A DNA stretch of 5,142 nucleotides from a virus (lineage: Duplodnaviria > Heunggongvirae > Uroviricota > Caudoviricetes). This document shows, one piece after another, positions 1,028 through 5,131 of the stretch. The stretch is from IMG/VR virus record IMGVR_UViG_2681813263_000003; one strand, 5' to 3'. A program made the position numbers and the translations under genes. Position 1 is the first letter of the stretch. Each line of letters opens with the position of its first letter. The notes under the pieces were generated by a model that saw only the letters and a program-made list of their open reading frames with translations, had not been told where the DNA came from and searched no databases.

Positions 1028-1378
1028 ATGCCATCACTAATCCCACGTGCCTGCCGTAAGCGTGGATGTGCAGGTACAACCACAGACAGTTCGGGTTACT
1101 GCGATAAACATCGCGGTGAAGGCTGGGTGCAGCACCAGCGCGGACTGAGCCGCCACCAGCGTGGCTATGGCTCAAAATGGACGGTGATTCGTGCCCGTAT
1201 TCTGAAGCGCGATAAAGGTCTGTGTCAGTTGTGTCTGCGTGTCGGTGTGGGGAGCGAGGCGAAAACCGTCGACCACATCATCCCGAAAGCGCATGGCGGA
1301 ACAGACGCAGACAGCAACCTGCAGAGTCTGTGCTGGCCCTGCCATAAAGCGAAAACAGCGCGCGAACGAATCCGGTGA
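1028..1378 (+). CDS. Phage-associated HNH endonuclease (terminase-associated type)
   Basis: 116-aa ORF with Cys pairs (CQLC ... CWPCH) and the motif DHIIPKAHGGTDADSNLQSLC, typical of HNH/zinc-ribbon nucleases. Located directly upstream of the terminase genes, as in HK97-like packaging modules. GAGG at 1019-1022 lies 5 nt upstream of the ATG. Confidence 0.88.
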   Translation: MPSLIPRACRKRGCAGTTTDSSGYCDKHRGEGWVQHQRGLSRHQRGYGSKWTVIRARILKRDKGLCQLCLRVGVGSEAKTVDHIIPKAHGGTDADSNLQSLCWPCHKAKTARERIR

Positions 1379-1400
1379 TAATTATTCTCACTTGTAGGGA

Positions 1401-1460
1401 GGGGCGGGGCAAATCCCTGTGACCTGACGTCTTCCGGACTGCCCGCCCCATCGTTTTTTT
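1401..1460 (+). terminator. GC-rich imperfect dyad followed by a T7 tract; candidate rho-independent terminator and/or part of the cos region
   Basis: GGGGCGGGGCA (1401-1411) can pair with TGCCCGCCCC (1440-1449), giving about 8 GC pairs plus 2 more after a one-base bulge, around a loop of about 28 nt that contains the palindrome GACGTC (1426-1431). Followed by TTTTTTT (1454-1460). The loop is long for a canonical intrinsic terminator, hence the low confidence. Confidence 0.35.
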
Positions 1461-1499
1461 ATACCCGCGAAAAATGAAATTTAACCAGGAGTGCCGCAT

Positions 1500-1994
1500 A
1501 TGGCTGGAACGGCGGGGGGGTCCGGGCGTCGCCCCAAGCCAACGGCGCGCAAGGCGCTGGCCGGAAACCCCGGCAAGCGAGCCCTGAACAAAGATGAACC
1601 TGTTTTTACGCCCATCAAAGGTGTTGAGCCACCAGAGTGGTTCGCTGAAGAAGATCTCCCTCTCGCCACGATCATGTGGCAACTGACAACCAAAGAACTC
1701 TGCGGTCAGGGCCTGCTGTGCGTGACTGACCTGGCGGTACTTGAGCGGTGGTGCGTGGCCTATGAGTTCTGGCGACGTGCCGTGAAAAATATTGCCATAC
1801 AGGGCAACACCATCACCGGTGCAATGGGCGGCAGGGTCAAAAATCCGGAGCTGACCGCCAAAAAAGAACAGGAGTCCGAGATGAGCAGCACGGGGGCAAT
1901 GCTCGGACTCGACCCCAGCAGCCGCCAGCGTCTGATTGGCCTGGCGGGGCAGAAGAAAGCCACTAACCCGTTTCTGAAAATTATCGAATCATGA
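1500..1994 (+). CDS. terS: Terminase small subunit, P27 family
   Basis: Translation [36 protein letters not shown]... with downstream ...[22 protein letters not shown]... has the characteristic P27-family N-terminus and core. AGGAG at 1486-1490 favours ATG 1500 over the GTG 1491 used in the ORF track. Stop TGA 1992-1994 overlaps the large-terminase start (ATGA). Confidence 0.88.
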
Positions 1995-3724
1995 GCCGGA
2001 AATCTTACCCCAACGTAAATGCTGCAAATCAGTATGCCCGGGATGTCGTGCGCGGAAAGATTGTTGCCTGCCAGTTTGTGATTCAGGCCTGCCAGCGCCA
2101 TCTTGATGACCTGATGGCGGAAAAAAGTAAGTCGTTTCGTTACCGCTTCGACAAGGACCTGGCTGAACGGGCCGCGAAATTTATTCAGCTGTTGCCGCAC
2201 ACCAAGGGGGAGTGGGCATTCAAACGGATGCCCATCACGCTGGAGCCGTGGCAGCTATTTGTGATCTGCTGTGCGTTTGGCTGGGTCAATAAAGGCACCC
2301 GGTTGCGCCGCTTCCGGGAGGTGTACACCGAAATCCCCCGTAAGAACGGCAAATCAGCAATCTCTGCCGGTGTTGCCCTGTATTGTTTTGCCTGTGATAA
2401 CGAGTTTGGCGCGGAAGTGTATTCCGGTGCCACGACAGAGAAACAGGCGTGGGAAGTCTTTCGCCCGGCGCGACTGATGTGTAAACGCACACCCATGCTG
2501 ACGGAAGCGTTCGGGATTGAGGTTAACGCCTCAAACATGAACCGTCCGGAGGATGGCGCGCGGTTTGAACCGCTGATCGGCAACCCAGGTGATGGTTCAT
2601 CACCCCACTGTGCCGTGGTTGATGAATATCACGAGCATGCCACCGATGCGCTTTATACCACAATGCTTACCGGGATGGGGGCGCGACGTCAGCCACTGAT
2701 GTGGGCCATCACCACCGCCGGGTACAACATTGAGGGGCCGTGCTACGACAAGCGGCGGGAAGTCATCGAGATGCTCAACGGCTCGGTGCCTAACGATGAA
2801 CTGTTCGGGATCATCTATACCGTTGATGAAGGTGACGACTGGACCGGCCCGCAGGTGCTGGAAAAAGCCAATCCAAATATTGGCGTGTCGGTTTATCGCG
2901 AATTTTTGTTAAGTCAGCAGCAGCGTGCGAAAAATAACGCCCGTCTGGCAAACGTCTTTAAAACAAAACACCTCAATATCTGGGTGTCGGCGCGTTCGGC
3001 GTATTTCAACCTGGTGAGCTGGCAGAGCTGCGAGGATAAATCACTGACCCTTGAGCAGTTCGAGGGGCAGCCGTGCATTCTGGCCTTTGACCTGGCGCGT
3101 AAGCTGGATATGAACAGCATGGCGCGACTTTATACCCGCGAGATTGACGGTAAAACGCATTACTACAGTGTGGCCCCGCGTTTCTGGGTACCGTATGACA
3201 CGGTGTACAGCGTCGAGAAAAATGAAGATCGACGGACAGCCGAACGCTTTCAGAAATGGGTGGAAATGGGCGTTCTGACCGTTACCGATGGTGCGGAGGT
3301 GGATTATCGCTACATCCTCGAGGAGGCCAAAGCGGCGAACAAAATCAGCCCGGTCAGTGAGTCACCCATCGACCCCTTCGGGGCGACCGGGTTGTCACAT
3401 GACCTTGCTGATGAAGACCTGAATCCCGTCACTATCGTCCAGAACTTCACCAATATGTCCGATCCGATGAAAGAGCTGGAAGCAGCGATTGAATCGGGAC
3501 GTTTTCATCATGACGGCAATCCCATCATGACCTGGTGTATCGGCAACGTGGTCGGCAAAAACATGCCGGGTAACGATGATGTGGTGAAACCCGTCAAAGA
3601 GCAGGCGGAAAACAAAATCGATGGTGCAGTTGCGCTGATTATGGCGGTTGGCAGAGCCATGCTGTACGAGAAAGAAGACACGCTGTCTGACCACATTGAG
3701 TCCTACGGGATCCGCTCGCTTTAA
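1991..3724 (+). CDS. terL: Terminase large subunit (ATPase plus nuclease; Terminase_1-like)
   Basis: 577-aa ORF. Walker A-like motif EIPRKNGKS and Walker B-like motif [10 protein letters not shown] in the N-terminal ATPase domain; C-terminal RNaseH-like nuclease signatures ([11 protein letters not shown] ... [12 protein letters not shown]). Size and position downstream of terS are typical. Confidence 0.96.
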
Positions 3725-3735
3725 CTGAGGTAATT

Positions 3736-3918
3736 ATGATCATGCTGATTCTCGCGCCTCTGGTGGGCGTGCTGGGTGCGCTTTTGCTGGCGTATGGTGC
3801 CTGGCTGATTTATCCCCCGGCGGGTTTTGTTGTTGCCGGGGCGCTGTGCCTGTTCTGGTCGTGGCTGGTGGCGCGATATCTCGACCGTACACGGCAGTCT
3901 GTCGGCGGAGGTAAATAG
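3736..3918 (+). CDS. Small hypothetical membrane protein (60 aa, two predicted TM helices)
   Basis: [26 protein letters not shown] - PPAG - [19 protein letters not shown], followed by a short basic tail. GAGG at 3727-3730 lies 5 nt upstream of ATG 3736. Its stop TAG 3916-3918 overlaps the portal GTG start by one base. I recognise no family from the sequence alone. Confidence 0.55.
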
Positions 3919-5131
3919 TGTTCTTTTCGGGATTATTTCAACGAAAAAGCGATGTGCCGGTGACCACGCCAGCAGAACTGGCTGATGCTATCGGGCTGTC
4001 ATACGACACCTATACCGGAAAGCGGATCAGTAGCCAGCGGGCCATGCGCCTGACGGCGGTCTATTCTTGCGTCAGGGTGCTGGCAGAGTCTGTTGGTATG
4101 CTGCCCTGCAGTCTCTACAAAATCAGCGGTACCCTGAAAACACGGGCGGTGGATGAACGACTGCATAAGTTGGTTTCGGCAAAACCTAATGGCTACATGA
4201 CACCGCAGGAATTCTGGGAGCTGGTTATTGTCTGCCTGTGTCTACGGGGGAATTTTTACGCCTACAAGGTAAAGGCACNNNNNNNNNNNNNNNNNNNNNN
4301 NNNNNNNNNNNNNNGANNNNNNNNNNNNNNNNNNNNNNNNNNNNNNNNNNNNNNNNNNNNNNNNNNNNNNNNNNNNNNNNNNNNNNNNNNNNNNNNNNNN
4401 NNNNNNNNNNNNNNNNNNNNNNNNNNNNNNNNNNNNNNNNNNNNNNNNNNNNNNNNNNNNNNNNNNNNNNNNNNNNNNNNNNNNNNNNNNNNNNNNNNNN
4501 NNNNNNNNNNNNNNNNNNNNNNNNNNNNNNNNNNNNNNNNNNNNNNNNNNNNNNNNNNNNNNNNNNNNNNNNNNNNNNNNNNNNNNNNNNNNNNNNNNNN
4601 NNNNNNNNNGTTGNNNNNNNNNNNNNNNNNNNNNNNNNNNNNNNNNNNNNNNNNNNNNNNNNNNNNNNNNNNNNNNNNNNNNNNNNNNNNNNNNNNNNNN
4701 NNNNNNNNNNNNNNNNNNNNNNNNNNNNNNNNNNNNNNNNNNNNNNNNNNNNNNNNNNNNNNNNNNNNNNNNNNNNNNNNNNNNNNNNNNNNNNNNNNNN
4801 NNNNNNNNNNNNNNNNNNNNNNNNNNNNNNNNNNNNNNNNNNNNNNNNNNNNNNNNNNNNNNNCGAAGAGCTGGGGCTGGGATTTATCAACTATTCACTG
4901 GTGCCGTATCTGACCCGCATCGAACAGCGGATCAACACCGGACTGGTACGAAAAAGTAAGCAGGGCGTTTATTACGCCAAATTTAACGCCGGGGCGTTAC
5001 TGCGCGGGGATATGAAGTCCCGTTTTGAAGCCTACGCCACCGGGATCAACTGGGGAATTTACTCTTCCAATGACTGCCGCGACCTGGAAGATATGAATCC
5101 GCGTCCCGGTGGTGTAATGCCGATCAGTTAA
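3918..5131 (+). CDS. Portal protein, HK97 family; interior masked by Ns with an apparent frame change across the gap
   Basis: GTG 3918 is preceded by GGAGG (3906-3910, 7 nt spacing). N-terminal 120 aa (…RAMRLTAVYSCVRVLAESVGMLPCSLYK…QEFWELVIV…) resemble HK97-type portal proteins. After the N block the portal-like sequence (…FINYSLVPYLTRIEQRINTGLV…ATGINWGIYSSND…) continues to TAA 5129-5131 but in a different frame (pre-gap frame 0, post-gap frame 2). Total span of about 404 codons fits a portal protein. The end coordinate and integrity are uncertain because of the gap. Confidence 0.8.
4279..4863. other. N-masked or unresolved block (585 positions) containing isolated called bases GA (4315-4316) and GTTG (4610-4613)
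   Basis: Directly visible run of n characters; it lies inside the portal gene. Confidence 0.99.

Follow-up and report, generated by a model that had tools for sequence, protein, structure and literature searches.

We analysed a 5,142-nt stretch of DNA from a tailed phage of the class Caudoviricetes (IMG/VR record IMGVR_UViG_2681813263_000003; the whole stretch is referred to here as the window) and found that positions 1028-3724 in all likelihood form a cassette that serves DNA maturation and packaging in a lambdoid prophage from the SfV/SfI/SfII/SfIV/phiP27/ST64B group, and in which terminase-mediated cleavage at cos would be assisted by an HNH endonuclease. We put the probability of this reading at about 0.88. 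The cassette comprises an HNH endonuclease gene (1028-1378, 116 amino acids), a 121-nt intergenic region that contains cos (1379-1499), the small terminase gene terS of the P27 family (1500-1994, 164 amino acids) and the large terminase gene terL (1991-3724, 577 amino acids), and all genes of the window lie on the plus strand. A preliminary description, made from the sequence alone, had proposed these genes in this order and at these positions; all three products pass the curated cut-offs of Pfam or NCBIfam, and the module served well as the internal consistency check on the gene calls that had been suggested.

The same description had predicted cos rather than headful packaging, and this prediction is supported because TerL is 99.5% identical to that of SfIV, the experimentally determined SfI cohesive-end 10-mer is present at the homologous position, the annotated cos-site of phiP27 aligns to it, and the only solved protein that TerL matches is the large terminase of HK97. 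Packaging from cos implies unit-length genomes. In phages that package in this way generalized transduction is expected to be low, and satellites that carry cos could be mobilised. Published work already covers the module, its cos sequence and the partnership of HNH and terminase, all of which are routinely annotated, and the window holds one more copy. The finding matters little beyond annotation, where it fixes the probable end of the mature genome at 1449|1450.

The cohesive-end sequence and the genome end

Run-off reads from both ends of SfI virion DNA, when compared with the prophage, leave a 10-nt gap reading 5'-TGCCCGCCCC-3' (PMC3636060). In the window TGCCCGCCCC occurs once, on the plus strand at 1440-1449, within the HNH-terS gap where an intergenic site had been proposed. 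The SfI record, which is linearised at cos, ends with the same 10 nt at the position aligned to 1440-1449, and the cos-site feature of the phiP27 record, CGCCCGCCCC, falls on the same 10 columns and matches at nine of them. With up to one mismatch allowed, this 10-mer would be expected 0.67 times by chance, so that the 10-mer alone is not beyond chance expectation; what gives it significance is the context in which it aligns, together with the SfI end defined by experiment. The authors of the SfIV study reported that the cos site is identical among SfI, SfII, SfIV and SfV and that restriction fragments are precise, in contrast to Sf6 and SfX, which are pac phages with unrelated terminases (PMC3851460).

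In our alignment the junction between the end and the start of the HK97 record falls at the column of window 1449|1450, and the left end of the mature genome would thus probably begin at 1450. Since a gap rather than an overlap between run-off reads is the product of recessed 5' ends, and since HK97 has a 3' overhang, the cohesive end is by analogy most likely a 10-nt 3' overhang. The length of the HK97 overhang is itself given as 10 nt in one report (PMC11331095) and as 12 nt in another (PMC9410871), although both concern the same packaging system.

Conserved blocks around cos

The footprint of the cos region was obtained by aligning the HNH-terS gaps of the window, phiP27, the Salmonella 'Adana' phage and Klebsiella phi6.3, with Moraxella Mcat17 for comparison. 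Four conserved blocks emerged, at 1397-1419, 1436-1449, 1454-1460 and 1463-1482. The upstream block, GGGAGGGGCGGGGCAAATCCCTG (1397-1419; consensus GGGAGGGGCGGG(G/T)CAAATCCCTG), is kept in four enterobacterial relatives and has a similar counterpart, GGGGGGGGGATCAAATC, in HK97; its function is something that we only infer. The second block consists of GGAC followed by the cohesive-end 10-mer. Downstream of the cut, the conserved stretch at 1454-1482 is made up of a run of seven T (1454-1460), ACCCGCG (1463-1469), a run of five A (1470-1474) and AAATTT (1477-1482). Within it, TTTTTA.ACCCGCGAAA and AAATTT are invariant in the window, phiP27 and the Salmonella and Klebsiella relatives, and are recognisable in Mcat17. 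By analogy, the stretch is a candidate TerS-binding, cosB-like site, and the footprint as a whole is clear enough to guide work on TerS binding.

When the right end of the HK97 genome is joined to its left end, the junction aligns with the window through a G-rich run plus ATCAAATC, about 26 nt of intervening sequence and then GACCGCCGCC, and GAC(C/T)GCC..GCC is common to the HK97 junction and the window across the alignment of 1397-1482. HK97 TerS binds at +15 to +29, where the sequence reads ...ACCCGATTTTTTT (ACCCG, then a T tract). The window carries ACCCGCGAAAAAT at +14 to +26, a likeness that is suggestive only. The two cos regions can be aligned in this way although the TerS proteins of HK97 and the window show no detectable sequence similarity.

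The cos region also contains an inverted repeat of 8 nt with fully complementary arms at 1401-1408 (GGGGCGGG) and 1442-1449, the right arm lying inside the cohesive-end sequence. Folded as RNA, the resulting hairpin was not more stable than shuffled sequence (z=-1.43), and a terminator scan made no call. We therefore rejected the repeat as an intrinsic terminator and treat it as a feature of cos at the DNA level.

The HNH protein

The HNH protein matched the Pfam HNH family over the complete model (PF01844, model positions 1-47; E=1.4e-16; 60.8 bits against a curated cut-off of 21.4) and PHROG 144 (E=2.7e-42). Its catalytic core spans residues 66-112 (1223-1363, plus strand) and retains C66, C69, H83, N97, C102, C105 and H106. 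The preliminary description had singled out the His-Asn-His residues as a point on which its assignment could fail, and these are intact: H83, N97 and H106 correspond in the alignment to H93, N109 and H118 of HNHE from Geobacillus virus E2 (GVE2), residues that have been tested by mutation, and the two zinc-binding CxxC pairs, C66/C69 and C102/C105, align with C76/C79 and C114/C117 of the same protein. This packaging-associated GVE2 nuclease was also the best match in the PDB (5H0M; E=7.7e-12), with an alignment over the full length.

At its N-terminus, the translated protein has a zinc-ribbon-like motif, C9-x4-C14 ... C25-x2-H28 (1052-1111, plus strand), which aligns with the N-terminus of GVE2 HNHE. 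The protein is a minimal zinc ribbon plus HNH, and a Pfam scan found no additional DNA-targeting domain. This is the architecture of the 'Group 1' phage HNH nickases of Xu & Gupta, which have an N-terminal zinc ribbon and are encoded beside cos and the terminase genes, whereas HK97 gp74 belongs to Group 3 and is without the ribbon. Among its relatives, the window protein is 98% identical in amino acid sequence to phiP27 L34 and 78% identical to the SfI HNH protein, and it is recognisably similar to the packaging HNH proteins gp74 (34% identity, E=1e-9) and phiSLT HNH (36%, E=4e-14). Searches of NCBIfam additionally returned matches below threshold to the RNA-guided endonuclease IscB (44 bits, cut-off 175) and to the Zorya protein ZorE; these reflect the shared HNH domain only and not membership in either family.

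The position of the gene is conserved as well. In every relative examined it lies directly 5' of terS, also in the two that had been chosen only by similarity of TerL, Vibrio pVa5 and Moraxella Mcat17, and it was present in 11 of 11 related modules inspected, HNH-less alleles of the locus not having been searched for. The placement 5' of cos and terS is kept across seven genera (Escherichia, Salmonella, Klebsiella, Vibrio, Moraxella, Staphylococcus phiSLT and HK97). In addition, the partners are those of a packaging HNH protein, namely a TerL of the Terminase_1 type (PF03354/PF20441) and an HK97-type portal (PF04860). Kala et al. are said to have tied HNH proteins specifically to Terminase_1 TerL in 2014. 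In Vibrio phage vB_VspP_pVa5 the HNH homologue (956-1322) is labelled 'holin' in the record and ends 6 nt before terS, leaving no space for cos between the two genes; the cos site of this phage must therefore be at another place or within a gene.

The terminase subunits

TerS was confirmed as a P27-family small terminase by Pfam Terminase_4 (PF05119; E=3.9e-20; 72.5 bits, cut-off 24.7) and by the NCBIfam equivalog TIGR01558, 'sm_term_P27' (72.2 bits, cut-off 45.6), and all 623 of its database homologues carry PF05119. Its translation most likely starts at the ATG at 1500, which has a Shine-Dalgarno sequence, AGGAG, 8 nt upstream (1487-1491, plus strand). The GTG at 1491, where the mechanically called open reading frame begins, was rejected in favour of this start on the basis of the AGGAG spacing and of the SfII and SfV annotations, which both use the homologous ATG. 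The protein is 98.8% identical to SfII TerS and 48% identical to that of phiP27.

In an AlphaFold model of TerS, residues 40-140 form a confident core and the N-terminal 36 residues are disordered (predicted local distance difference test score, pLDDT, below 50). These residues (1-36; window 1500-1607) are nevertheless near-invariant across homologues from Enterobacterales, Vibrio and Moraxella and, by analogy with HK97 TerS, are a candidate DNA-binding arm. No similarity to HK97 TerS (gp1) was detectable by BLASTP (E=6.3) or by hhalign with a seven-sequence profile (probability 0.3%). Gp1 itself matched no Pfam or NCBIfam family and does not belong to Terminase_4/P27. A profile search of the PDB with TerS found no terminase, and the P27-family small terminase is one for which no solved structure is detectable by sequence.

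For TerL, the searches proposed in the preliminary description likewise returned a Terminase_1-type protein, with matches to TerL_ATPase (PF03354; E=8e-26; 91.2 bits), TerL_nuclease (PF20441; E=4e-33; 115.2 bits) and PHROG 9 (E=3e-195). The ATPase domain covers approximately residues 86-256 and the nuclease domain approximately residues 268-558. The Walker A residues R117, K118 and K121 (R-K-x-G-K) align with the functionally tested R56, K57 and K60 of HK97 TerL, and the Walker B residues D211 and E212 (D-E) with the functionally tested D153 and E154. Identity is 99.5% to SfIV TerL, as given above, and 77% to phiP27 TerL, and the protein is closer to phiSLT TerL (29%, E=2e-68) than to HK97 TerL (26%, E=8e-31). 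A grouping of TerL with headful terminases had been raised as the outcome that would speak against cos packaging. The sole PDB sequence that TerL matched, even at E<=10, was the TerL of the cos phage HK97 (6Z6D; E=5e-26); no other solved terminase appeared at E<=10 and no other terminase family of Pfam at E<=0.01. For the type of end, near-identity to phages whose cos ends have been defined by experiment weighs more than a phylogeny of TerL would.

The terS and terL genes overlap by the 4 nt ATGA at 1991-1994 (plus strand), as had been noted, with the terL start at 1991-1993 and the terS stop TGA at 1992-1994. The same overlap is found in SfII, SfV, Klebsiella phi6.3, Vibrio pVa5 and Moraxella Mcat17, and translation of the two genes is probably coupled through it.

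Relatives and mosaicism

At the DNA level, the region shares 94-98% identity with SfV, SfI, SfII and SfIV and 82% with phiP27 and ST64B. It is present at >=80% coverage in 882 complete Escherichia coli genomes, with 2228 showing any match, and is annotated there as HNH endonuclease, terminase small subunit P27 family, terminase large subunit, YmfR and portal. No identical record was found among complete E. coli genomes or phage records, the best being about 95% identical over the whole query. A search with the 56-nt cos pattern returned two Shigella flexneri prophages and one contig from a metagenome-assembled genome (MAG), all approximately 93-94% identical, so that none of them is the source of the window, and an exact search among species-representative genomes with 80 nt gave no match. 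The MAG contig, labelled 'MAG: Bacillota bacterium' (JAEWTL010000102.1, 5596 nt), carries the module at 94% identity over 3.1 kb, and is very likely a mis-binned or contaminant contig.

The serotype-converting S. flexneri phages SfI, SfII, SfIV and SfV resemble the window most closely. They share the gene order HNH (as the last gene), cos, terS, terL, membrane protein and portal, their TerS and TerL proteins are 98.8% and 99-99.5% identical to those of the window, respectively, and TGCCCGCCCC and its flanks are identical. They differ from the window in carrying a different allele of the HNH gene (78% amino acid identity for SfI), and megablast matches to several relatives do not cover the first ~120 nt of the window HNH gene. 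The Stx2e phage phiP27, the namesake of the P27 family, similarly has a 10-nt cos-site between HNH (L34) and terS (L35), and its similarity to the window is uneven: DNA identity is 94-100% in the HNH gene and ~98% in the ymfR-like gene and at the beginning of the portal gene, whereas the terS-terL cassette (~1420-3700) is a different allele with 56-90% identity. Mosaic junctions relative to phiP27 thus lie at ~1400-1450 and ~3700. The left crossover falls in the conserved cos block GGGGCGGG(G/T)CAAATCCCTG, and relative to the Salmonella phage the pattern at this junction is reversed.

A consequence of this mosaicism is that a near-identical HNH protein and cos operate with quite different TerS alleles in the window and phiP27. 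The plain explanation for this tolerance is that both alleles have kept the conserved N-terminal arm of TerS and the conserved cos blocks.

Comparison with experimentally studied modules

The preliminary description had called the cassette HK97-type. This holds for TerL, the HNH protein and the layout of cos but not for TerS, and judged by sequence similarity the module is of the P27/phiSLT type in all three proteins. On the same grounds, the closest experimentally dissected module that matches in all three proteins is that of the Staphylococcus aureus phages phiSLT and phi12, the HNH-cos-TerS-TerL system reported by Quiles-Puchalt et al. (2014). In phiSLT, the HNH protein is 36% identical to that of the window, TerS also belongs to Terminase_4, TerL aligns over its full length at 29% identity, and terS and terL overlap. 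The spacing is comparable: HNH, 70 nt, a 10-nt cos, 48 nt and terS in phiSLT, against HNH, 61 nt, a 10-nt cos, 50 nt and terS in the window. In contrast to the window, phiSLT TerS has only 101 amino acids and is without the conserved basic N-terminal ~45 residues, phiSLT HNH is without the N-terminal zinc ribbon (the alignment begins at residue 35), the cos sequence is unrelated and there is no membrane-protein gene between terL and the portal gene.

HK97 TerL (gp2) belongs to the same Pfam families as the window TerL, with 26% identity and both Walker motifs kept, and gp74 is similar to the window HNH protein over 70 amino acids (34% identity) and, on the circular map, is encoded directly 5' of cos and terS. 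The HK97 cos junction is alignable, with the same end column and with ACCCG and an A/T tract downstream. Unlike the window protein, gp74 has no zinc ribbon at its N-terminus, and a helix is inserted into its HNH loop; the distance from the gp74 stop codon to the genome end is ~320 nt rather than 61 nt; and HK97 has neither a terS/terL overlap nor a ymfR-like gene. GVE2 HNHE (5H0M) shares with the window protein the zinc ribbon, the H/N/H residues, the four zinc cysteines and a location adjoining cos and terminase genes. GVE2 is, however, a thermophilic Gram-positive phage, the alignment of its HNHE to the window protein needs several gaps, and the only activity known for HNHE is that of a nickase, either non-specific or with site preference.

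A proposed mechanism of packaging

Because of its homology to the HK97 and phiSLT modules, we propose the same mechanism for the window. Late transcription would read through endolysin, Rz/Rz1, HNH, cos, terS, terL, ymfR and portal, and TerS and TerL would be made in a coupled way via the ATGA overlap. TerS, as a P27-family ring-former with a conserved basic N-terminal arm, would then recognise cos on concatemers, most likely at the block formed by the T tract, ACCCGCG and the A tract. TerL, an ATPase of the additional strand, catalytic glutamate (ASCE) class joined to an RNase-H-like nuclease, would act together with the HNH nuclease to make a staggered cut around 1440-1449, leaving the 10-nt cohesive end TGCCCGCCCC, most likely as a 3' overhang. 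Finally, TerL would dock on the portal and pump in a single genome unit, up to the point at which it reaches the next cos and this is cut.

The accessory role assigned here to the HNH protein is presumed by analogy with HK97 gp74 and with phiSLT/phi12. Gp74 interacts physically with TerL, stimulates cos cleavage by terminase in vitro, is essential in vivo and depends on its metal-binding His, and a requirement for HNH in terminase-mediated cos cleavage, or a stimulation by it, has also been reported for S. aureus phages. Current models have either the HNH protein cutting one strand and TerL the other, or TerL cutting both with stimulation by HNH. HK97 TerS bound just 3' of the cut makes the motor stall and brings cos into position at the nuclease site.

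A more speculative extension, which we regard as possible but would not favour, takes the cos regions of HK97 and of the P27/SfV type to be homologous, on account of the G-rich/TCAAATC block, the same cut column and the ACCCG and A/T tract 14-30 bp 3' of it. P27 TerS might then read the downstream site by its invariant, disordered and basic N-terminal arm, in the manner of the HK97-like 'arginine clamp', and the HNH-TerL pair might set the position of the cut. If the pair does so, this would explain how a 98%-identical HNH protein and a near-identical cos work with TerS alleles that are only 48% identical.

Points against the packaging cassette and alternative explanations

Several observations weigh against reading the region as an HNH-assisted cos packaging cassette. 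The SfV record (U82619.2) is linearised 7 nt 5' of TGCCCGCCCC, at window 1432|1433, and starts with TCCGGACTGCCCGCCCC, which reflects either an arbitrary linearisation or an end that is differently placed or reported. The 3' polarity of the overhang is one that we infer from the run-off gap and the HK97 alignment. The HNH and terS-terL alleles are inherited separately (for HNH, 98% amino acid identity to phiP27, against 48% and 77% for TerS and TerL), and the HNH protein is therefore not tightly co-evolving with TerS. We found no experiment in the accessible literature showing a need for HNH in this element or in the enterobacterial clade. Finally, since most of the portal gene is masked, the intactness of the packaging machine as a whole cannot be judged, and the element could be a defective prophage.

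The last point leads to the alternative that survives best, although we consider it unlikely: that the cassette is a decaying, non-functional remnant in a cryptic prophage, comparable to the ymfR/beeE remnant of e14 in K-12. With the portal gene masked at 4279-4863 its state cannot be judged, and the partial copies in many E. coli genomes implied by the difference between the 2228 genomes with a match and the 882 at >=80% coverage would fit such a remnant. Against this, HNH, terS and terL are full-length, contain no frameshifts or stops and encode proteins 98-99.5% identical to those of the plaque-forming phages SfII and SfIV; the catalytic residues of the HNH protein and TerL are intact, as are the flanking lysis genes.

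Somewhat less probable still is that the HNH gene has no part in packaging, being either a selfish homing endonuclease that stands on its own or a nuclease that serves some other purpose, for example in the timing of lysis. Some phage records do label the homologue 'homing endonuclease', packaging-type HNH proteins are non-specific nickases in vitro, and the decoupling of the HNH and terS-terL alleles, with a mosaic junction right after the HNH gene, is what a mobile gene might be expected to show. That crossover, however, lies in the conserved cos block, which accounts for it without homing; the 116-residue protein consists of zinc ribbon and HNH only and has no extra domain for DNA targeting; and its position 5' of cos and terS is retained in all seven genera. 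The published SfI ends and the intact reading frames, 98-99.5% identical to those of viable phages, likewise speak against both roles. A role in lysis timing was a speculation of the SfIV authors (PMC3851460).

Headful (pac) packaging, with the intergenic sequence serving only as a terminator or regulatory hairpin, is very improbable: the inverted repeat followed by seven T does resemble an intrinsic terminator with a long loop, and membership in TerL_ATPase and TerL_nuclease does not by itself prove the type of end, but the hairpin folds no better than its shuffles and drew no terminator call, TerL matches only HK97 TerL in the PDB, the SfI cohesive ends were determined experimentally with exactly TGCCCGCCCC (PMC3636060), and the cos site and precise restriction fragments of SfIV, SfII and SfV (PMC3851460) are joined by the annotated cos-site of phiP27.

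Genomic context of the cassette

The window is the lysis-to-head junction of an SfV/phiP27-like prophage, where the right (lysis) and left (head) ends of the phage map are joined in the integrated or circular form. Its gene order is endolysin, Rz/Rz1, HNH, the 121-nt gap with cos, terS, terL, a membrane protein and the start of the portal gene, and the open reading frames on the minus strand are mere shadow frames opposite the coding strand. Neither tRNA genes nor Rfam families turned up when the whole window was scanned. The endolysin gene (27-524, a match to Phage_lysozyme) is followed by the gene for the Rz spanin (509-985), which contains the Rz1 lipoprotein gene (741-923) wholly within it in the +1 frame. 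Rz and Rz1 thus form a classic embedded spanin pair, and the endolysin stop overlaps the Rz start (509-524). The HNH gene then closes the lysis end of the late operon, directly 5' of cos.

On the other side of the cassette, the portal gene starts at 3918, and its first part (3918-4278) matched Pfam Phage_portal (PF04860, 66.9 bits) and PHROG 12. Three runs of N (4279-4314, 36 nt; 4317-4609, 293 nt; 4614-4863, 250 nt) mask most of the remainder, and the open reading frames called through this stretch are artefacts of the translation of masked codons as X. Both the N-terminal portion and a C-terminal piece after 4864 still match relatives. Between terL and the portal gene lies a gene for a YmfR-like small integral membrane protein (3736-3918, 60 amino acids; PHROG 502, E=2.8e-28), whose homologues go by ymfR in annotations of E. 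coli and by 'putative integral membrane protein' in those of phiP27 and SfII. Throughout the SfV/phiP27 group this two-helix protein sits between terL and portal; it is absent from HK97 and phiSLT, and the SfII record annotates a putative rho-independent terminator inside its gene.

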